Shown here piece after piece: positions 59-9,358 of a stretch of DNA of 64,000 nt (positions within the stretch are counted from its first letter, which is position 1; every line of letters begins with the position of its first letter). Origin of the DNA: Limnobacter sp. Its GTDB lineage: Bacteria > Pseudomonadota > Gammaproteobacteria > Burkholderiales > Burkholderiaceae_B. A program made the position numbers and the translations under genes. The DNA lies in contig JARWZZ010000007.1 in the NCBI GenBank assembly GCA_029866125.1, positions 341,519 to 405,518 of the forward strand, in the 5' to 3' direction. The notes below the pieces were generated by a model that was not told the origin of the DNA, did no database searches, and saw only the letters and a list, made by a program, of their open reading frames with translations.

Positions 59-148
59 GGAAGCTTGGGTGAGCGGTTTAAACCAGCAGTCTTGAAAACT
101 GCCGAGGATGTGAGTCCTCCGTGAGTTCGAATCTCACAGCTTCCGCCA
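59..148 (+). tRNA. tRNA-Ser(TGA), long variable arm, encoded CCA
   Basis: Acceptor stem GGAAGCT/AGCTTCC, anticodon loop CT-TGA-AA, T-loop GTTCGAATC, 3' GCCA; TATAAT at 44-49 upstream. Confidence 0.97.
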
Positions 149-149
149 A
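135..149 (+). repeat. att core direct repeat, tRNA-proximal (attL)
   Basis: CACAGCTTCCGCCAA, identical to 6498-6512. Confidence 0.92.
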
Positions 150-160
150 GAACGTAATGA

Positions 161-187
161 AATAGCGCCTTTCGGGGCGCTTTTTCA
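161..187 (+). terminator. Intrinsic terminator supplied by the island after tRNA-Ser
   Basis: GCGCC-TTTCGG-GGCGC hairpin followed by a T run. Confidence 0.75.
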
Positions 188-190
188 TTT

Positions 191-212
191 CTACCCATGT
201 TCCTACCCATGT
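191..212 (+). repeat. Tandem CTACCCATGT x2 (12-bp period), likely integrase arm-type sites
   Basis: The same tandem motif recurs at 6355-6375 near the other end of the island. Confidence 0.7.
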
Positions 213-436
213 TTTTTCGCTCGCTTGAGCGTGTCAGATAGCCCTTTGTGGCCACTCTGAATCCCTTATCGCCGCCACTACGCGTTTGTTGTGTTTTTGC
301 AAATTACTTTAACCGTTGCGGTCCAATCCGAGCAGGGGGGAAGATTTTTGCCACAATAGCAACACAGGCCAAAGGAATTGGCGTCTGTAATATCTACTTT
401 TGACAATCAAAATATTCATCCTACTGGGCATAAGTC

Positions 437-1039
437 ATGTATTGCAGATCTGCTTTTATTGGGTTATTGCTTTTGAGTGGTGCTTGCTCAGATGGCCCGA
501 CCGCACGAAATACGGAAAATATTGATGTAACGCCAATCCCGGAACAGGCATTTTATTTCGGAGCCAAAGAGGCCCCTTACAAAGAGTTAATTCTGAGGGG
601 AATTCAAATGGTTCAGAGAGATAATCCAGTTTGCCGCAAGGATATTCAGCCTTACTCCTTGGCTATGTCGCCCTCAAAAGGCACGGCTGACGACCCGGTC
701 TTTTTTATTACATGCGGGTCTGACGCCAAAGCCTTTAACGTTTGGTTCTCCAAATCGCAAATTGAGAACGACCAGAGCGTCAAAGCACCTGAAAACCTGC
801 CAAGAGCCAAATTGTTATCGTTGTGTGAGGATTGGATTCGCTCTCAGGCAACAAATCCGCACACGGTCGACATGTCTCTAATAGTGAACGCCAGGATAGA
901 AAACTTTGCGAACGGTAACTCAAGGCTATCAACCACTTTCAATGCCAAAAACAAACTCAACCAAGAGTCGAAATTTGGTGCTACCTGCTTGGTTGAACCT
1001 GACGGCCAGGTGGAAGGTCAAGTGACGTTGCTAAATTGA
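437..1039 (+). CDS. Hypothetical lipoprotein, 200 aa (island cargo)
   Basis: Lipobox-like LLSGA-C at residue 17; opposite strand to the core satellite genes; TTGACA at 400-405 upstream. Confidence 0.8.
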   Translation: MYCRSAFIGLLLLSGACSDGPTARNTENIDVTPIPEQAFYFGAKEAPYKELILRGIQMVQRDNPVCRKDIQPYSLAMSPSKGTADDPVFFITCGSDAKAFNVWFSKSQIENDQSVKAPENLPRAKLLSLCEDWIRSQATNPHTVDMSLIVNARIENFANGNSRLSTTFNAKNKLNQESKFGATCLVEPDGQVEGQVTLLN

Positions 1040-1069
1040 TTACCCTGCGTGTTATGGGCGGTGGTCACT

Positions 1070-1163
1070 AATCAAAGTTTTGTAACTAACTCAATTAATT
1101 TGATCTTTAGATAACTTATGCGAGTTCGCATGACCCGCAAGGGACACCCCCCGGGAAGGACCC
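1070..1163 (-). other. Candidate lambdoid cos packaging site (cosQ 1157-1163, cosN-like ~1119-1140, IHF box 1070-1082)
   Basis: Minus strand reads GGGTCCT-TCCCGGGGGGTGTCCC-TTGCGGGTCATGCGAACTCGCA; AATCAAAGTTTTG matches WATCAANNNNTTR exactly. Confidence 0.6.
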
Positions 1164-1245
1164 AAGGGGGTGGGGGGTGTATGGCCCTCTGCCCAAGCCT
1201 TGTCTCATTCAGCGCCGCCGGTCATTCGGGCAGGGGTGGTGGGTC

Positions 1246-1341
1246 TTATGGTAGCTTTGGGGGCTCTTTCAAGAAAAGCAGCACTAGTAGTACCAGAGGA
1301 AACAACAAAACGATCAAGGTAAATTTAATGAAGTTTGCCAA
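1246..1341 (-). CDS. Small hydrophobic peptide, 31 aa (MANFIKFTLIVLLFPLVLLVLLFLKEPPKLP)
   Basis: TTG start 8 nt after GGAG; single TM-like stretch; below the ORF track cutoff; translated by hand. Confidence 0.45.
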   Translation of the reverse strand: MANFIKFTLIVLLFPLVLLVLLFLKEPPKLP

Positions 1342-1493
1342 AGTCTAATCTCCAATTACCAATCGCCTGGTGGTCGGGTCGGCCGATTGTCTGAGCGTCC
1401 ATCATAGACTAGCTTTTTGAATTCTGCATATAGTCTCCCACCTTGGGCCATGTGGAGTTGTCGGGCAGGATGGCTATCCATAAAAATTGGTTC

Positions 1494-1607
1494 CAGACAG
1501 CGGACAAACGGACACACCTATAGGTGTGTGTCCGTGTATGTCCGGTCTTGGGAAGTGGGACGGACAGACATTGTCCGGACAATGTCTGGAGTTTGTCCGG
1601 TGTCCGG
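1494..1607. repeat. CGGACA/TGTCCG iteron and palindrome cluster, candidate replication origin
   Basis: 9 hexamer copies in 1501-1606; perfect 24-bp palindrome at 1565-1588; directly downstream of the primase stop codon. Confidence 0.7.
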
Positions 1608-1609
1608 TA

Positions 1610-3604
1610 TTAAAATTTCCAGAAATAGCCATGACTGCCCGCAATCAATCCCATTTTGCGAAGGTCCTCCACTGCCCGCCGAAAAGCCTTTTGCCTTGTT
1701 CCCACCGGAGCCCCCTGATCGAAACTAGGGCATGCATAGAACAAATCCCGCCAAACGTGTTCGGGGACACACTCCCTTGGCGCGTCCAAGCCCATCTTTT
1801 CGACTACTTCATAGGGCGTTTGAACCGCCTTCCCGTTCTCGCTGGCGGTGGTTAGACACTCGAGCGCATCCACCTGCCTGGCACTTAATTTGTGTCTTTT
1901 GGCGGTGTTTGTTGGTGCTTCAGTGGGCACCAGTACCGCAGACATTTGCAGTTCCCCGGTGTCAGGGTCAACAGGCCAGTCGTTGAGCACTACGTCCAGT
2001 AGATCGAAGGATTGGTCTGGACCAGGCTCGATCTCCTTTTGCTTGGTGGTCTTGAGTGTCCGTGTCCCTTCCTTGTTTGTCAGCGCGAAGGCGGAATCCA
2101 CCCCAGCGGGTAGGGCACTGGCTCCGCGCGACCTATCGCCTTCCCCGTGGCCTACATGGTGCACAATCAGCACAGTGCAGTTGAAGGGGCGAAGGAAGAA
2201 TCTTTCGATGTGGTGCAGTATTTTGGCTACATCCGAGTTTGAGTTTTCATCCCCACCACCTGTGCGGTTAAATGTATCCAGCACCAGCAAGGACAGTGGA
2301 CCGTTTGTCTCCACAATGTAATTAACGGCGTTGTGTGCATCAAAGCAGGACGTTTCATCAATCAGTTGCACCGTACGTTGATTGAAAAACATTGGAACCT
2401 CAGCAATTTCCACCTGGTTGTATTTTGCCCAGGCAGCGCAGCGACGACGGAAACCCGCAAACCCTTCCCCTGCAAGGTAACAAACCCCACCCTGCTTAAC
2501 CTTTCGCCCATTCCATTCACGCCCGGTAGCGACACACAATGACCAATCCAATGACAAAAAACTTTTGCCGGCAGATGGGGGGCCAAATAGCAGGGCCAGC
2601 GCCCCCGCTTCAATGTGTCCATGAATGAGCCAGTCAGGCGGTGCTTTATCCTTGAGCATTTCGCCGATTGGAACGAAATAGCTTTCCACCGCATCCACTG
2701 CACCTGGTGCGATGGGCCTTGGAGCCTTGGACGCGGGATTGATCCACCCGAGGGCTTGGGCTTCCTTGAAAATTGCAGGGTAGCCCGTTTGCACGCCGTT
2801 AAAGCTATCCCATTTTTCGGCGGCTTCTACTTCGTCAAAACGCGTGTCTGTCTCGGACCATTCAAACCACAATTCCCGGCCAACCTCGCCCAGTGCTTTC
2901 AATCGTTGACCGTTGCGAATCCAGGCGTCGTAATTGGTCGCCTCTAGGCTGCGCAGTGCAGATTTAATGTCCCGTATGGTGGTCGCGTCGATGTGGTCAG
3001 TTTCCACTTGGTGAGTTTCTTCGGCTGGTATTTGGGTCGCAGCATTGGGTTTGGGTTTGAGCAATTGTGATAGCCGCATTTTCACACTCTCGGGCAGGGA
3101 TTTCACTTCGTTAGAATTCACCCTCTGCCCGGTGAATGTCACGAACCCATTACGCCCGAATACCTCCACCCCTATTGAATTGTTTTTGGCGCTAGGCATG
3201 CTGCCCATCCAAATTGCATGGATACCTTTCCCACCCGGTGATCGTTCAGCATAGGTGGTGCCTGCTAAGGCTTCAGCGTCGGGGTGTAGCCCCTGCCCGT
3301 GTTTGTCGTCAAAGTCGCCAATGGTGATTCCAAATTCGGGCAGTGTGGCAATCCCAAGGCCTGCATATCCACCGCCATTGAGCACATCTAGGGCTACATC
3401 AAACATGGCCAGCTTGGATTTGTCTTCCTCAGTGCCATGACCACCCCGGGTGGTCCCGTTGACGTAATAGGGAATCTTTGCAACTTTCCCACTTTGTTGT
3501 CGGATTGCCTTCCACAGCACCCAGCATTTAAGGTGGCGTAGGGCTTCAGGGCAGGCGGCTTGTAAACGGTCGGTGATGGTTACAATTTGTGGGTTTTGGT
3601 TCAC
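1610..3604 (-). CDS. Primase-helicase: prim-pol (NrS-1-like AEP) + PriCT-2 + AAA_25/RepA-type helicase
   Basis: WVLWK..KIPY and GDFDD prim-pol motifs; Walker A GPPSAGKS and Walker B LLVLDT. Likely GTG start at 3604 overlaps the upstream stop (GTGA); the ORF track extends it to 3697. Confidence 0.88.
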   Translation of the reverse strand: MNQNPQIVTITDRLQAACPEALRHLKCWVLWKAIRQQSGKVAKIPYYVNGTTRGGHGTEEDKSKLAMFDVALDVLNGGGYAGLGIATLPEFGITIGDFDDKHGQGLHPDAEALAGTTYAERSPGGKGIHAIWMGSMPSAKNNSIGVEVFGRNGFVTFTGQRVNSNEVKSLPESVKMRLSQLLKPKPNAATQIPAEETHQVETDHIDATTIRDIKSALRSLEATNYDAWIRNGQRLKALGEVGRELWFEWSETDTRFDEVEAAEKWDSFNGVQTGYPAIFKEAQALGWINPASKAPRPIAPGAVDAVESYFVPIGEMLKDKAPPDWLIHGHIEAGALALLFGPPSAGKSFLSLDWSLCVATGREWNGRKVKQGGVCYLAGEGFAGFRRRCAAWAKYNQVEIAEVPMFFNQRTVQLIDETSCFDAHNAVNYIVETNGPLSLLVLDTFNRTGGGDENSNSDVAKILHHIERFFLRPFNCTVLIVHHVGHGEGDRSRGASALPAGVDSAFALTNKEGTRTLKTTKQKEIEPGPDQSFDLLDVVLNDWPVDPDTGELQMSAVLVPTEAPTNTAKRHKLSARQVDALECLTTASENGKAVQTPYEVVEKMGLDAPRECVPEHVWRDLFYACPSFDQGAPVGTRQKAFRRAVEDLRKMGLIAGSHGYFWKF

Positions 3605-3912
3605 CGGTGTATCCCCCCAAAAAGTCGGGCGGTGTCCCTGCTGATTCGGTAACGCGCCAGCAATGGGTTGACTTCTTTCTCCCGTTCTACTGGCCAACCT
3701 TGTTTTATGAGCCAGTCAATGATTTGCGATAAGTCACCAAAAGCGTCAAACGCCCACTCGATTGGGTCCAGCAGGTGCCCGTGCGCCATTAGCTCCAAGG
3801 CCTTGTACTCCAAGGTGTAGCGTGGTGGTAGGGCGGGCTTTCGATAGCGAATAAGATGCACCAATGAGGCTTTAGCGGGCTTCATGTTGTCGGGGGTGTT
3901 GTGCGTTGTCAT
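3601..3912 (-). CDS. Hypothetical protein, 103 aa, possibly winged-helix DNA-binding
   Basis: 4-bp overlaps with alpA (ATGA) and the primase (GTGA); C-terminal LSQIIDWLIKQGWPVE..ARYRI pattern resembles wHTH. Confidence 0.7.
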   Translation of the reverse strand: MTTHNTPDNMKPAKASLVHLIRYRKPALPPRYTLEYKALELMAHGHLLDPIEWAFDAFGDLSQIIDWLIKQGWPVEREKEVNPLLARYRISRDTARLFGGIHR

Positions 3913-4139
3913 GCCAGCACCCCTTTGCTTTTCTGAATCAGGTCGTTAATCCAGGCCTCCACCACGCTTTCAGGCCAAAGCGCGACTCGCTCCCCAAATT
4001 TCACGGGCGCAGGGAATGAGCCCACAGCAATGAGTTGATATATTGTGGAACGTGATATACCGCAGCGGGTAGTAACATCCCGCATACGCAGCAATCGGGC
4101 AGGGGGTGTAGGCGTTTGGGGTTGTGTGTTGTTGTCCAT
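3909..4139 (-). CDS. alpA: AlpA-family transcriptional regulator / recombination directionality factor
   Basis: LLRMRDVTTRCGISRSTIYQLIAVGSFPAPVKFGERVALWPESVVEAWI is a typical AlpA HTH. Confidence 0.95.
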   Translation of the reverse strand: MDNNTQPQTPTPPARLLRMRDVTTRCGISRSTIYQLIAVGSFPAPVKFGERVALWPESVVEAWINDLIQKSKGVLA

Positions 4140-4231
4140 TTGAGCACCTTGTACTTGTTGAGGTGCTTCTTATTGAATAGATCGGAATGAGGGCTAGAAA
4201 GGAAACAATTTATAAAACAATTGTTCCCCCC

Positions 4232-4735
4232 TTAGTCTCCATTTGGAACTTCTGTTGCCTGGACCGGTAATCCCATTAACTTGAGTTGTCCAGGGTCTCC
4301 ACCAATTTTCAGGTATCGGCGCTGCCCGCGATTCAACTTGGTTTTGAAAGACTCGCAAAGTTTGCCAGCGGACTCATCGTCGATACTCGGGTGTGCGGCT
4401 AACACTTTCTGCCTGACAAATTGATTTTTTGAGAGTGTCCGGTCATTTGACCACCTCCCAACAAACTCGATAAACAATTCCAAATCTTCCTGCCTGAGAT
4501 TTCGTCTATCAGGCCCTTCGATATTTCCGCGTAGGGTTTCCGCGATAATCCACCTTTCAAAAGGATTAAGGGAATTCGCCTGCTCAACCACGTTGGATAG
4601 AAGGTCAATATCTCCCGAGTTGAGGTAATCCAACAAACCGGTCAAAAACTCGCCGGTTACCTTACCCTCTTTACCGTTGACCTTTGTCGGAAGGTCTACG
4701 CCCCCAAAGGAAATTCCTAGTTTGCTCATCAACAC
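4232..4735 (-). CDS. Hypothetical protein, 167 aa
   Basis: Open frame co-oriented between int and alpA; no family recognised. Confidence 0.7.
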   Translation of the reverse strand: MLMSKLGISFGGVDLPTKVNGKEGKVTGEFLTGLLDYLNSGDIDLLSNVVEQANSLNPFERWIIAETLRGNIEGPDRRNLRQEDLELFIEFVGRWSNDRTLSKNQFVRQKVLAAHPSIDDESAGKLCESFKTKLNRGQRRYLKIGGDPGQLKLMGLPVQATEVPNGD

Positions 4736-4746
4736 CCTTCAGATGT

Positions 4747-4818
4747 GTTCCTTCGTAATCGGGACCACCGCCAGGGGGTGAAGGAACCCCTTTTCGATTC
4801 GCGGGTCTAGGCGGTGGT
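4747..4818 (-). ncRNA. Candidate structured cis-regulatory RNA (int-alpA-motif-like) with possible pseudoknot
   Basis: 9-bp stem ACCACCGCC/GGCGGTGGT, inner GGGGT/ACCCC hairpin; GTTCCTTC (4747-4754) is complementary to GAAGGAAC (4780-4787). Confidence 0.5.
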
Positions 4819-4836
4819 GCTTAAAACTTGGCGCTC

Positions 4837-5013
4837 TCAGGGTGCCTTATTATTCAAGGCTTCCCCCGCCTGCTCGAGTAGAGTTTGAACCGCCCAAATC
4901 GCTAATAGGTTTGTTTGGTCTAGGCCTGGGCGCGACATGGCGTCCTCCCCAACCATCAAGTCGAGAATTGCCCGCGCCTGGGTAATGCGTTCGTTAATCA
5001 AATCTGAGTTCAT
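4837..5013 (-). CDS. Small hypothetical protein, 58 aa (MNSDLINERITQARAILDLMVGED...)
   Basis: ATG preceded by GAGGAA; follows the int stop by 31 nt; absent from the ORF track (<60 aa). Confidence 0.65.
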   Translation of the reverse strand: MNSDLINERITQARAILDLMVGEDAMSRPGLDQTNLLAIWAVQTLLEQAGEALNNKAP

Positions 5014-5044
5014 TTAGTTAGTTCCTCGCTAGAAAATTAGTTAA

Positions 5045-6340
5045 TCAAGCCGTTCTAATCGGAATGACCGTCGCGGGGGAATCTGCCTTATCGCAGAAGT
5101 CGGCCCAATCCTGCATCAATCGAATCCTTTTATCGAGCAAGTTGCCGCGCATGTAAGCGGCGACCACCTTGTCGGTCAAGTTGTGCGCCAAAGCCTTTTC
5201 AAGCACCTCATGTGGATAGGCCGTGCGCTCTCCACCCCAAACTCTGAATGTGGACCTGAAACCATGAACCGTGACCGTCCTAGGCTCTTTGCCTGGCTCC
5301 CCTTGCTTGCGGTCCACCCATCCAAGCCCATCAGCCTTCAGCTTTTCAGCGTGTAGCCTTCGCAAAGTTGCGGTCAGAGTCATGTCGGATAACATTGAAC
5401 CACCAGGGGAGAAAAACACGTAATCTGAAGCGGTCCGTGGCAAAGACTCGAGCAAACGTATTACCTGGTCTGACAGTGGGACGGTGTGCTCCCTGCCTGC
5501 TTTCATCCGGGCAGGGGGGATGGTCCACAATTTGTTAGCCAAATCAAACTCGTTCCATTTCGCGCCTCTGACTTCCCCCGATCTGGTAGCGGTCAACATG
5601 CAAAACTCAATCGCCTTGGCTGCCATGCCTTCTCTTTGCCTAAGTGCCGCCAGGAATGCACCAATCTCGACGTAATCAAGCGCTGGGAAGTGCCGTTCCC
5701 CCTGCACCTTGCTAGGGGTTGCCAATTGGTGTTGAAGGTGCCCCTTCCACCTAGCAGGGTTTTCTCCCGTGCGGTATTCCCTAGAAGTCGCCCAGTCAAG
5801 CACCGCCTCAATCCTCCCGCGCAAACGGGACGCGGTTTCGTTCTTCGTCAGCCATATCGGCTCTAGCACTTGGAGCACTAAGCCCGTGTCCACGGCAGAC
5901 ACGGGCAGTTTGCCTAGTTTGGGCTCCGCGTATGTCTCCAAAGTGGACACCCACTGGTTCACATGCTTTGTGTTTTTCCAGTCTGGCGACTTTGCTTTGA
6001 TGTAGAGTTTGGCGCATTCACTGAAGGTTAGGTCCTTCGCTGCCTCTACCCTTGCCCTGGACTTCGCTGCATCCCTTTCCACAATTGGGTCACGGCCCTC
6101 ATGGACACTTTGCCGTGCCTGGCCTGCTCGCTCTCTGGCAGATGAAAGCCCAAAGGTATCCAGAGGCCCTAAACCCATTTCCCTGGGCTTGCCAGTTACT
6201 GGGGAGGTGAACCTAAAGACCCATGACTTAGCCCCACTGGCGGTGACCTGGAGAAACAATCCGCCCCCGTCACTCAAATGTCCCGGCTTGGTGGCCTTGG
6301 TTACAGCCAAGGCTGTCAGCTTGTGAATTGATTTGGCCAT
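5045..6340 (-). CDS. P4/IntA-family tyrosine integrase with N-terminal arm-binding domain
   Basis: DGGGLFLQV..GAKSWVFRF arm-binding domain; catalytic residues in TRSGEV, HGFRSTF, LAH, AAY. Confidence 0.96.
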   Translation of the reverse strand: MAKSIHKLTALAVTKATKPGHLSDGGGLFLQVTASGAKSWVFRFTSPVTGKPREMGLGPLDTFGLSSARERAGQARQSVHEGRDPIVERDAAKSRARVEAAKDLTFSECAKLYIKAKSPDWKNTKHVNQWVSTLETYAEPKLGKLPVSAVDTGLVLQVLEPIWLTKNETASRLRGRIEAVLDWATSREYRTGENPARWKGHLQHQLATPSKVQGERHFPALDYVEIGAFLAALRQREGMAAKAIEFCMLTATRSGEVRGAKWNEFDLANKLWTIPPARMKAGREHTVPLSDQVIRLLESLPRTASDYVFFSPGGSMLSDMTLTATLRRLHAEKLKADGLGWVDRKQGEPGKEPRTVTVHGFRSTFRVWGGERTAYPHEVLEKALAHNLTDKVVAAYMRGNLLDKRIRLMQDWADFCDKADSPATVIPIRTA

Positions 6341-6354
6341 AATTGGTCCGTTTC

Positions 6355-6375
6355 CTACCCATGTCCCTACCCACG
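6355..6375 (+). repeat. Tandem CTACCCATGT/CTACCCACG, likely integrase arm-type sites
   Basis: Matches 191-212 with the same 12-bp period; lies just upstream of the int start. Confidence 0.7.
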
Positions 6376-6490
6376 AAAATATAGCAGATTTGGGTGGATT
6401 TTCCTGTATTTCTTTGGACGATAAATCGCTCAGATAACCAATCTGCGCGGGTCTTGGGTGGGTGTTGTGGATCTTCCTCGGACTACCCTA

Positions 6491-6512
6491 TGGCGGACAC
6501 AGCTTCCGCCAA
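6491..6512 (+). repeat. attR: duplicated tRNA 3' end with symmetric core TGGCGGA-CACAGCT-TCCGCCA
   Basis: Direct repeat of 135-149; perfect 7-bp inverted repeat around a 7-bp spacer. Confidence 0.9.
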
Positions 6513-6519
6513 AAACACC

Positions 6520-6546
6520 AAAACCCGCCCTTGTGGCGGGTTTTTT
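6520..6546 (+). terminator. Intrinsic terminator, probably the original tRNA terminator displaced by the insertion
   Basis: AAAACCCGCC-CTTGT-GGCGGGTTTT followed by a T run. Confidence 0.85.
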
Positions 6547-6664
6547 GTTTTTGCGCCCTGTGAGTGGATTCGAACGAACGGATTTGAAGCAAGAGTCGCA
6601 TTGGCTGATTCCATTCCCGTGGTAACCTGTGGCTCGGATTTTATGCAGCAGTAGAGCTTTATCC

Positions 6665-9358
6665 ATGCCGTCACTTCTCGCCTTATTTGCTTTCATGTTG
6701 ATGGTTTTAGGGGGCTACGGTTACGTCAACCAGCCTGTTCAGGAACCACCTTGGACGCGGGTCATACCCGGGTTTGCCTTTTCTCCTTATCAGGAGGGGC
6801 AAAGCCCGTTGAACAACAGCCTCCCGTCTGTTGACGAAATTTCCAAAGATCTGGCCTTGCTGGCTGGCAAAACTCAAGCAATACGTACCTACACGGTTGC
6901 TGGTGTGTTTGGTGAAATTCCCCAGTTAGCAAAAAAGCACAACATCAATGTGGCCTTGGGCGCTTGGATCAGTGCTGACCTCGACGCCAACGCCAAAGAG
7001 TTGGACCGGCTGATGGAGGTGGCCCAAAGCCCTTCGCACAATGTGGTCCGTTTGATTGCGGGCAACGAGGTTTTGCTGCGCAAGGAACTGCGCTTGGACC
7101 AACTGACCGGGTATTTGGACAAGGTGCGAGAAGCCACGGACATACCCGTCAGCACCGCTGAGCCATGGCATGTTTGGCTTAAAAACCCCAAGTTGGCTGA
7201 GCATGTGGACTACTTGGCTGTCCATTTGCTGCCCTATTGGGAAGGGGTTGCGCTGGATAACGCGGTGGAGTTTTCCATGAATTCCTACCGGCAGTTGCAG
7301 CAGGCATTTCCGGGCAAAAAGATTGTGATTACCGAGGTGGGCTGGCCCAGTCAAGGCCGCTCCATCAGGCAGGCGGATGCATCACCCGCCAATCAAGCCA
7401 AATTTTTAAGAAGGTTTATTCACCGCGCTGAACAAGAAGACATCCTGTTTTATGTGATGGAGGCGTTTGACCAACCCTGGAAGGCTGACATCGAAGGCAG
7501 TGTAGGTGGCTATTGGGGCGTATTTGACAGTGGCAGGGCACCCAAATTTGAAACCCGAAGCCCGATTATTGCCATTCCTGAATGGAAGCTGCTTGCTGCC
7601 ACCTCGATTGTGGTGGCCTTGCTGCTGACCCTACTTTTGTTGACAGACGGTTCTGCTTTGAAGTTACGTGGGCGCGCATTCCTGATGTTCAACGCGTTTG
7701 TGGCTTCATCCTTGATTATCTACGTGGTGTACGATTTTTCGATTCAATATCACACTTGGGTGAGCGTCACGGTTTCTGCTTTGTTGCTTTTGGGCATGGT
7801 CGGCGTTTTTGTAATTGTGCTGGCCGAGGCGCATGAATGGGCTGAAGCCATGTGGTACCGGCAGCGTAGAAGGTTGCTTATTGCACCGGGTTTAAACCGT
7901 AAGCCTGTGCCCATGGTTGATACGCAAGAAGCGAGTCTAGGGCAGGGTGAACGCCTTCCATTTGTGTCTATTCATGTGCCTGCCTATGAAGAGCCTGCTG
8001 ACATGATGATTGCCACCTTGAATGCTTTGGCCAATTTGGACTATCCGCATTTTGAAGTGGTTGTGGTGGATAACAACACCCGCAATGAGTCCACATGGAG
8101 GCCGGTGGAGGCGCATTGCAAGGCGCTCAATTTGCAAAACCTGAGTGTGCAAAATCCCCGCGTTGAAGACAACAGGCGACCTGAAATTCAAGAAAAGCAG
8201 TTTCATTTTTACCATGTGAGCCCACTTTCAGGCTACAAGGCCGGTGCGCTGAATTATGCTTTGGAGCGCACCAGCAGCAAGGCTGAAGTGGTGGCGGTGA
8301 TTGATGCGGATTACAAAGTCACTTCCAACTGGTTGAAAGACTTGGTCCCCGAGTTTGCAAAACCTGAGCTGGCGATTGTGCAGGCCCCGCAGGATTATCG
8401 GGATGATTCGGACAGCCCCTTCAAAGCCATGTGTTCTGCCGAGTACAAAGGGTTTTTCCACTTGGGTATGGTCACTCGTAACGAGCGGAATGCGATTATT
8501 CAGCATGGCACCATGACCATGGTTCGTCGAACCGTGTTGGAGTCTGTTGGCGGCTGGGGCGTCAACACCATCACCGAAGACACCGAGTTGGGCTTGCGGA
8601 TTTTCGAGCATGGATTTGAGGCGGTGTACATCGATCAAAGCTACGGCAAAGGGTTGATTCCTGATACGTTTACTGATTACAAAAAGCAAAGGTACCGGTG
8701 GGCTTACGGCGCAATGCAAATTTTGCGTGAGCATGCAGGGCAGTTAATCGGATCCAAGGACAGTAAGCTGACACCCGGGCAGCGTTACCATTTTGTATCC
8801 GGCTGGTTGCCTTGGATTGCCGATGGTTTTAATTTGCTGTTCACTTTGATGGCGGTTGTGTGGTCTGCGTTGATTTTGTTTGACCCGATTGCTTACAATG
8901 CACCCCCGCTGTTAATTAGTGTGGTGCCGTTGATGTTCCTCGCCTTCAAAATTGCCAAATTGTTTACGCTGTATTTGGGCCACATCAAGACTGGTGTTGG
9001 CACAGCAATGTCAGCCATTTTGGTGGGCTTGTCTTTGAGTTACACCATTGGCAGGGCCACCTTATCGGGTTTGTTTATTGGGCGAAAAATTCCGTTTATA
9101 CGCACGCCTAAAATGAGCAGTGGGTTTGCCTTAATCAGCGCATTGAATTCAGCCCGAGATGAGGCTTTACTCGCATTTGTATTGCTGGGCTTGGTTGGCC
9201 TCTTTTACTTTCAACTTGGATTTGAGTCTCAAGAAAACTGGATGTGGTGCTTGGTGTTGGTGTCGCAAAGCCTGCCCCATTTGGCAGCCATTTTGGTGGC
9301 GATGATCAGCACCTTGGGTAACAACACATCTCAACAAATACCTCAAACAACTGCCTGA
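6665..9358 (+). CDS. ndvB: GH17 + GT2 fusion, NdvB-like (cyclic) beta-1,3-glucan synthase
   Basis: N-terminal GH17 (GNEVLL, ITEVGWPS), TM segment, GT2 motifs (YKAGALN, IDADY, ITEDTEL, QRYRW); start placed at ATG 6665. Confidence 0.8.
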   Translation: MPSLLALFAFMLMVLGGYGYVNQPVQEPPWTRVIPGFAFSPYQEGQSPLNNSLPSVDEISKDLALLAGKTQAIRTYTVAGVFGEIPQLAKKHNINVALGAWISADLDANAKELDRLMEVAQSPSHNVVRLIAGNEVLLRKELRLDQLTGYLDKVREATDIPVSTAEPWHVWLKNPKLAEHVDYLAVHLLPYWEGVALDNAVEFSMNSYRQLQQAFPGKKIVITEVGWPSQGRSIRQADASPANQAKFLRRFIHRAEQEDILFYVMEAFDQPWKADIEGSVGGYWGVFDSGRAPKFETRSPIIAIPEWKLLAATSIVVALLLTLLLLTDGSALKLRGRAFLMFNAFVASSLIIYVVYDFSIQYHTWVSVTVSALLLLGMVGVFVIVLAEAHEWAEAMWYRQRRRLLIAPGLNRKPVPMVDTQEASLGQGERLPFVSIHVPAYEEPADMMIATLNALANLDYPHFEVVVVDNNTRNESTWRPVEAHCKALNLQNLSVQNPRVEDNRRPEIQEKQFHFYHVSPLSGYKAGALNYALERTSSKAEVVAVIDADYKVTSNWLKDLVPEFAKPELAIVQAPQDYRDDSDSPFKAMCSAEYKGFFHLGMVTRNERNAIIQHGTMTMVRRTVLESVGGWGVNTITEDTELGLRIFEHGFEAVYIDQSYGKGLIPDTFTDYKKQRYRWAYGAMQILREHAGQLIGSKDSKLTPGQRYHFVSGWLPWIADGFNLLFTLMAVVWSALILFDPIAYNAPPLLISVVPLMFLAFKIAKLFTLYLGHIKTGVGTAMSAILVGLSLSYTIGRATLSGLFIGRKIPFIRTPKMSSGFALISALNSARDEALLAFVLLGLVGLFYFQLGFESQENWMWCLVLVSQSLPHLAAILVAMISTLGNNTSQQIPQTTA

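Follow-up and report, generated by a model that had tools for sequence, protein, structure and literature searches.

A small integrative element with its own predicted replication origin in a tRNA-Ser gene of Limnobacter sp., a plausible phage satellite of the int-alpA-primase class

What kind of mobile element is a 6.4-kb island that carries an integrase gene, alpA and a primase-helicase gene, and how would it pass from cell to cell if none of its genes resembles a packaging or virion gene? The question is raised by an island in contig JARWZZ010000007.1 of Limnobacter sp. (assembly GCA_029866125.1). We analyzed it within a window of 64 kb, the whole stretch of DNA considered here, and all coordinates are positions in that window. 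The island is a small, intact and precisely bounded mobile element, with 6,363 bp between its repeats, inserted in a serine tRNA gene. From its sequence and from related islands, we lean towards the view that it is an integrative, self-replicating element of the int-alpA-primase class, similar to PICI and PICMI, which would spread in the particles of exogenous phages.

Boundaries and insertion site

The integration target and the sequences that delimit the island are as follows.

59-148, plus strand: tRNA-Ser(TGA), the integration target (ARAGORN; Rfam tRNA, 55.5 bits)
135-149, plus strand: attL core, a 15-bp exact direct repeat (repeat search; core shared with the related island L024)
164-181, plus strand: island-borne hairpin with a T-run, terminator of the rebuilt tRNA gene (terminator scan; sequence)
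188-221, plus strand: two tandem copies of the arm-type repeat TTCCTACCCATG on the cargo arm of attP, some 40 bp inward of attL (repeat family D1)
6352-6373, plus strand: tandem arm-type repeats of the int arm of attP, immediately 5′ of the int start codon (repeat family D1)
6498-6512, plus strand: attR core, the displaced original 3′ end of the tRNA gene (exact copy of the attL core)
6520-6544, plus strand: native tRNA-Ser terminator, outside the island and contiguous with the tRNA in relatives (terminator scan; congener comparison)

The first-pass annotation of this DNA had proposed 15-bp att direct repeats at tRNA-Ser, and the sequences at 135-149 and 6498-6512 are indeed exact copies of CACAGCTTCCGCCAA. 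This core consists of the final 14 nt of tRNA-Ser(TGA) and one further base, and the match extends to 18 of 19 nt (135-153 versus 6498-6516). It had also suggested looking for an empty attB in related strains. When the left flank joined to the sequence right of 6512 was searched in the genus, the uninterrupted site was found in at least nine congeneric genomes, where the tRNA 3′ end is followed by AAAACAT/CCAAAACCCGCCC...GGCGGGTTTTTTGTTTTTGCG...GATTCGAACGAACGGAT, that is, by the terminator and flank found here after attR. Because these congeners have the tRNA joined directly to the post-attR flank, the 6,363 bp represent a precise insertion. The 3′ end of the tRNA gene was rebuilt by the island, which also brings its own terminator.

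The arm-type repeats belong to one 22-nt family (D1), the copies at 188-221 and 6352-6373 being 91% identical over 22 nt. They are candidate integrase arm-binding sites and lie where such sites are expected on both arms of attP. Arm repeats occupy the same two positions in the related islands L024 and L038, with a different sequence.

Other rearrangements were observed around this site. In the congeneric L030 (G021) and L035 (G022), the att core, the native terminator and the flank (about 90 bp) are duplicated some 160 bp downstream of tRNA-Ser, the copies being separated by a filler of about 70 bp; this duplication could represent either a scar or a miniature element at this att site. A gene of 909 aa that lies right of attR (6620-9358 and beyond) is not next to tRNA-Ser in congeners. 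Since the two flanks of the island map far apart in congener genomes, synteny is lost some 110 bp beyond the right end of the island.

The replicase, its origin and the conserved backbone

The minus strand carries, in order, int, orf58, the int-alpA RNA, orf167, alpA, orf103, the primase-helicase gene and the iteron origin. They are given here by coordinate.

1487-1610, minus strand: replication origin, an 18-nt palindrome among nine CGGACA iterons of either orientation (hexamer clustering; alignment)
1512-1529, minus strand: origin palindrome ACACACCTATAGGTGTGT, 18 nt (sequence)
1610-3604, minus strand: primase-helicase and initiator, 664 aa from a GTG start (Pfam PriCT_2, PF08707, and AAA_25, PF13481; PHROG primase/helicase families)
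3601-3912, minus strand: orf103, a small fast-evolving protein (one homologue, 57% identical)
3909-4139, minus strand: alpA, AlpA-family regulator or excision factor (PF05930, E 4e-14; PHROG excisionase/regulator families)
4232-4735, minus strand: orf167, an orphan whose slot, flanked by the RNA and alpA, is hypervariable (open reading frame (ORF) call)
4750-4817, minus strand: int-alpA RNA motif, Rfam RF02996, between int and alpA (52.4 bits; gathering score 35.8)
4837-5013, minus strand: orf58, a small conserved protein adjoining int (41% identical to L018 orf55, same position)
5045-6340, minus strand: int, P4-type tyrosine integrase (Pfam Arm-DNA-bind_3, Phage_int_M, Phage_integrase)

Of the functional elements of the island, the predicted origin has the strongest support. 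Iterons had been noted in the first-pass annotation, and nine of the 30 CGGACA hexamers of the window were found to fall within 106 bp (1501-1606), four on the plus strand and five on the minus strand, the first about 4 nt past the replicase stop codon. Alignment revealed the same layout of iterons and palindrome 3′ of the replicase gene in seven related islands. The palindrome arms carry compensated changes (ACC/GGT here, TCC/GGA in L027, TTC/GAA in L038 and CCC/GGG in six JGI contigs). The iterons of L026, the most distant island with 47% replicase identity, read CGACAC. In L040, a contig of a BPP-1-like podophage, a replicase 32% identical to that of the island is accompanied by GTGCA iterons around the same CCTATAGG centre. 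Judged from these alignments, the iteron sequence co-varies with the replicase. Because the podophage has a related replicase together with the same origin architecture, the replicon of the island appears to be phage-derived or shared with phages; the replicase family is also present in tailed phages. The origin region of L040 lies at 3540-3670, 3′ of its primase-helicase gene. The origin core with palindrome ACACCCCTATAGGGGTGT was also observed in six JGI metagenome contigs (L126-L131). In two of them the origin follows a replicase about 33% identical to this one, and in the others it adjoins unrelated or unrecognised genes.

The replicase comprises an N-terminal AEP-type primase domain, PriCT_2, a RepA-like AAA_25 helicase domain and a conserved C-terminal domain, and its reading frame stays open to a TTG at 3697. 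Residues 17-201, which include the motifs DFDD and SPGGKGIH, match the primase domain of SaPI5 PriRep5 (PDB 7OLA, E 2e-10). The ATPase domain matches the RSF1010 RepA helicase (1G8Y, E 3e-4), and its Walker A motif, GPPSAGKS, is visible in the sequence. Overlaps of 4 nt join alpA to orf103 (ATGA) and orf103 to the replicase gene (GTGA), and the same overlaps are found in L018 and L124; as read from this arrangement, the three genes form a translationally coupled operon.

The gene order given by the first-pass annotation for int, orf58, RNA, orf167, alpA and primase-helicase agrees with the Pfam and Rfam assignments, and the core ORFs are all intact with their catalytic motifs. The integrase, in which TRSGE, HGFRSTF and AAYMRG are visible, is 51% identical to that of L024, which uses the same att core. 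By its position, orf58 would be an analogue of PICMI iolg/icg and is a candidate excision co-factor. The int-alpA RNA is also present in L018 and L027, and it is kept in L027 and L038 with a change of the inner stem from GGGG/CCCC to CAGG/CCTG. AlpA is 58-93% identical across the relatives. The sole PADLOC match in the island, of AlpA to the helix-turn-helix (HTH) model 'mad1', was judged to reflect generic HTH similarity.

The two remaining genes of the backbone vary more. The AlphaFold model of orf103 (predicted local distance difference test score, pLDDT, of 58.7) has a helix-helix-helix-strand-strand topology, and its top Foldseek matches are all winged-helix proteins of the MarR/ArsR type. 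The earlier label 'wHTH-like' is thereby matched in topology and in kind of hit; it stays tentative because the best E-value was only 0.02, and orf103 may be a winged-helix protein. For orf167 no homologue was found among 5.8 billion protein clusters, and its single-sequence structure model was unusable (pLDDT 44). Its slot is occupied by unrelated genes in L124, L018, L024 and L027.

In the same set of protein clusters, the replicase has only seven close relatives (47-68% identical) and one partial relative at 90%. Their contigs keep the same gene order, and the family is seen mainly in metagenomes. The family islands measure 6.4-7.0 kb and occupy differing tRNA sites; L024 uses the same tRNA-Ser and the same core (7.0 kb), L018 is at tRNA-Arg(ACG) (6.7 kb), and packaging or virion genes are absent from all of them. 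Of 401 genomes of the order, only the one studied here was found to carry the replicase clade; a search of 60 relatives likewise gave this genome alone, and a contig scan with the replicase gave a single distant match. The clade is rare.

Two of these relatives are informative about mobility and variation. In L038 (4200-4535), the cargo is followed by arm repeats ATTTCCGTACC, about 48 nt of a tRNA 3′ half, arm repeats and int, with no full tRNA. Because a partial tRNA flanked on both sides by arm repeats lies between cargo and int, this region of L038 (run SRR33696487) reads as an attP junction, that is, as a circle, a concatemer or a tandem array. The comparison with L124 revealed a backbone 90-98% identical at the DNA level, interrupted by two sharply bounded divergent or swapped segments (window 3582-3816 and 4175-4740): the C-terminal two thirds of orf103, in surroundings roughly 95% identical, are only 53-70% identical, and an unrelated gene sits in the orf167 slot. 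These two cassette-like slots would fit an arms-race function. The cargo region beyond the origin also varies between otherwise near-identical relatives.

The cos-like stretch, the cargo and the absent packaging genes

Three features lie between attL and the origin.

437-1039, plus strand: cargo, a 200-aa predicted lipoprotein (ORF; lipobox-type signal LLLLSGAC)
1060-1180, minus strand: 'cos-like' stretch, non-coding, between convergent genes, not supported as a packaging site (comparison and controls)
1246-1341, minus strand: putative hydrophobic small ORF of 31 aa (ORF call; GGAG 8 nt upstream)

The first-pass annotation had pointed to GGGTCCT, a dyad and an IHF consensus at about 1060-1180 as a cos-like site and had supposed that the element relies on this cos for packaging. 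A lambda-type cos, taken as cosQ-cosN-cosB above chance and either conserved or shared with phages, was not found there. The best local match to lambda cos is GGGTCCTTCCCGG (1151-1163, minus strand; 12/13 nt of cosQ and its flank), with a score of 21 that 38 of 1,000 shuffles and 44 of 289 control windows also attained; other parts of the island match lambda cos better. GGGTCCT is not enriched (three in the window against six expected), the IHF consensus occurs four times in the 64 kb against 2.9 expected, and the folding of the stretch gave a z of -0.9. No related island, not even L024, which shares the att site, is significantly similar to the region 1040-1487 (blastn; Smith-Waterman against shuffles). 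The stretch occurs only once in its own genome, and a search of 50,697 phage records gave no match to it. Since no test of similarity, motif counts, folding or conservation rose above chance, we regard the cos site at 1060-1180 as unsupported and highly improbable. Two of the four IHF matches (WATCAANNNNTTR) lie in the island, at 1070-1082 near the end of the cargo gene and at 4028-4040 inside alpA. Among the related islands the origin is conserved and the core genes are kept, which bears out the cis-sites only in part, the cos region not being conserved.

The plus-strand lipoprotein gene was recovered as previously described. Its product has remote matches to PHROGs 35526, 29597 and 32961 (E 7e-7 to 4e-5) and no close homologue among the 5.8 billion protein clusters. 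L018 carries a hydrophobic ORF of 43 aa (orf43) at the position of the 31-aa ORF, without sequence similarity to it. The stretches 222-436 and 1040-1245 are non-coding.

Searches of Pfam, PHROGs, NCBIfam and PADLOC gave no match to packaging or virion families (terminase, portal, capsid, tail, TerS, HNH, capsid-size), in line with the first-pass annotation. Relaxase, coupling protein, partition and known oriT were not found in library scans. The ORFs beyond the origin in the relatives were examined for one shared family, such as a hidden TerS. They do not form one, so that nothing conserved in the family is missing from this island.

Relation to known satellites and mode of transfer

The PICMI model consists of int, alpA, a primase with DUF3987 (PF13148)/DUF5906 (PF19263), and fis, integration at fis being a 'hallmark characteristic'; int, iolg, alpA and prim are needed, alpA-up1-prim are co-regulated, and packaging is headful-like with random ends, no cos or pac site having been found (PMC10803314). 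The island resembles the PICMI of Vibrionaceae (PICMI115) in its size of about 6-7 kb and in the succession of int, a small gene, alpA, a small gene, a primase/replicase and accessory gene or genes. Neither has capsid-remodelling, terS or structural genes; in both, the int-alpA and alpA-prim slots hold variable gene families and the helper is expected to be exogenous. Within 6.4 kb the island co-localises int (PF00589), alpA (PF05930) and a primase-helicase gene. However, Pfam gives PriCT_2 and AAA_25 rather than DUF3987/DUF5906, the primase being an AEP domain with PriCT_2 and a RepA-like AAA_25, and the insertion is in the 3′ end of tRNA-Ser(TGA) instead of downstream of fis. Further differences are a host other than Vibrio and the presence of the int-alpA RNA motif, and for the island both helper and transfer are predicted. 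Because primase and fis site both differ, the island would be PICMI-like in its logic but is not a PICMI; the description as a PICMI-like element thus stands for layout, size and lack of packaging genes, and fails for primase type and site.

With proteobacterial PICIs of the EcCICFT073 type (PMC10085698), the island shares an integrase, an AlpA activator, pri-rep, an origin by the replicase, integration at a tRNA or other specific site, and accessory or defence cargo. In contrast to them, it has neither packaging redirection of the terS/rpp type nor capsid morphogenesis genes, and it is half the usual size. The PICI model of SatelliteFinder comprises five core components, of which at least four are present in the accepted types A and B, Type C being set aside (PMC10085698); with only int, alpA and pri-rep, the island would correspond to Type C as published. 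In SaPIs, hexanucleotide iterons lie directly downstream of the rep ORF in opposite orientations (PMC9371898), and the nine hexamers at 1501-1606, on both strands, follow this rule. As in SaPI5 PriRep5/ori (PDB 7OLA), primase, helicase and initiator are fused, the primase domains are homologous, and a C-terminal domain could serve to recognise the iterons. The helicase, however, is RecA/RepA-like (AAA_25) instead of SF3, the origin is centred on the 18-nt palindrome instead of a plain AT-rich spacer, and the host is Gram-negative. P4 and P4-like elements share with the island a P4-family integrase with an arm-binding domain, a regulator of the AlpA/Vis type, their own primase-helicase and origin, and tRNA integration. 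They differ in that int lies here at the end distal to the tRNA and the replicase is of another family. No family match to the psu-delta-sid operon or epsilon, and no supported P2-type cos, was found in the island. The island is a variant of the satellite-like int-alpA-primase kind.

Several accounts of such a variant can be weighed. One, which follows the first-pass annotation, is that of a PICMI-like satellite with its own lambda-like cosQ-cosN-IHF site, whose concatemers would be cut at cos and packaged by the cos-type terminase of a helper. The 12/13-nt match to lambda cosQ and flank, the IHF match at 1070-1082 (two of the four in the window being in the island) and the non-coding character of 1060-1180 speak for it. 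Against these stand the controls that reach the same score, the better matches elsewhere in the island, the lack of enrichment of GGGTCCT, the lack of similarity of 1040-1487 even to L024, and the lack of any match in phage records or in its own genome. This genome moreover has no GpA-type terminase, and PICMI itself is packaged headful-like without a cos. We consider this account highly improbable. It is also very unlikely that the island is the decaying remnant of a larger prophage or satellite, now fixed and immobile and perhaps kept for its cargo. Such a remnant could explain why the replicase clade occurs in this genome only among 401 of the order, and it would agree with the orphan status of orf167 and the lipoprotein and with the long non-coding stretches (1040-1245 and 222-436). 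But both att cores and both sets of arm sites are intact, the core genes are open with their catalytic motifs, the size of 6.4-7 kb and the gene order recur at different tRNA sites, no gene conserved in the family is missing, and an attP form exists for a relative (L038).

A more serious competitor, still unlikely in our view, is an integrative plasmid-like replicon that is no satellite: it would excise, replicate as an episome, and spread vertically, by transformation or vesicles, or by conjugative mobilisation via a cis site. The RSF1010 RepA type of the helicase domain and the iteron origin are what such a replicon would carry, and the island has no packaging function, no host prophage was detected in its genome (TerL and HK97 searches), and IMG/VR holds no relatives. 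Yet the library scans gave no relaxase, coupling protein, partition function or known oriT. The backbone of integrase, AlpA and int-alpA RNA is typical of P4, PICI and PICMI, the primase domain is related to that of SaPI, and the replicase family is shared with tailed phages. The fast-evolving cassette slots, finally, fit an arms race with phages.

On this evidence a satellite lifestyle is plausible, and the reading as a PICI/PICMI-like element spread by exogenous phages is the one that we favor. Several results weigh against it. Neither a packaging signal nor a packaging-redirection gene was identified in the island, so that the first-pass view of an intact minimal element stands for int, alpA, primase-helicase and origin and not for a packaging cis-site of its own. 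The attP junction of this island had 0 matches in JGI metagenome contigs and is also absent from the assembly. In IMG/VR no close relative was found, the 80 matches all being phage helicases at no more than 43% identity. The genome itself has no TerL (PF03354, PF03237, PF05876, PF04466), no GpA-type terminase and no HK97 capsid; since TerL of these four families and HK97 capsid are lacking, no helper is resident. Of elements with int, alpA and pri only (Type C), the authors of SatelliteFinder consider that they may be defective or belong to other kinds of mobile element (PMC10085698). Helper, induction, excision of this copy and virion association are predictions.

As sequence and comparison show, the P4-type integrase, with arm sites on either side of the 15-bp core, inserted the island into the 3′ end of tRNA-Ser, where the island supplies a replacement end and terminator. 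If the island is such a satellite, its further cycle might run as follows. Upon infection by an exogenous helper phage, AlpA would turn on excision, by Int with AlpA and/or orf58, and replication. The fused AEP-primase/RepA-like helicase would act at its own adjoining origin of iterons and palindrome, as SaPI Pri-Rep does at ori. The amplified or concatemeric DNA would then enter the capsids of the helper through the helper-encoded terminase, and packaging of the headful/pac type, as in PICMI, would be at least as likely as packaging from a cos. The lipoprotein cargo and the variable slots would probably serve phage exclusion or the interplay with the helper.

We propose, more tentatively, that the island and its relatives form a family of functional minimalist satellites outside Vibrionaceae, with a replicase not homologous to that of PICMI, an origin shared with temperate podophages, and two cassette-like hypervariable slots that determine helper specificity or act against phages. 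In that case the PICMI lifestyle, in which concatemers are packaged by an exogenous helper and packaging genes are dispensed with, would have arisen repeatedly and be widespread at tRNA sites, and three core functions with an origin would suffice to parasitise tailed phages far from Vibrio. Satellites would then be undercounted, because present finders discard elements that have int, alpA and pri only. The conserved origin, with co-varying iterons, a compensated palindrome and counterparts in phages, would offer a clean system for the specificity of initiator and origin, and new helper-sensing or anti-phage genes may be sought in the two swapped slots.

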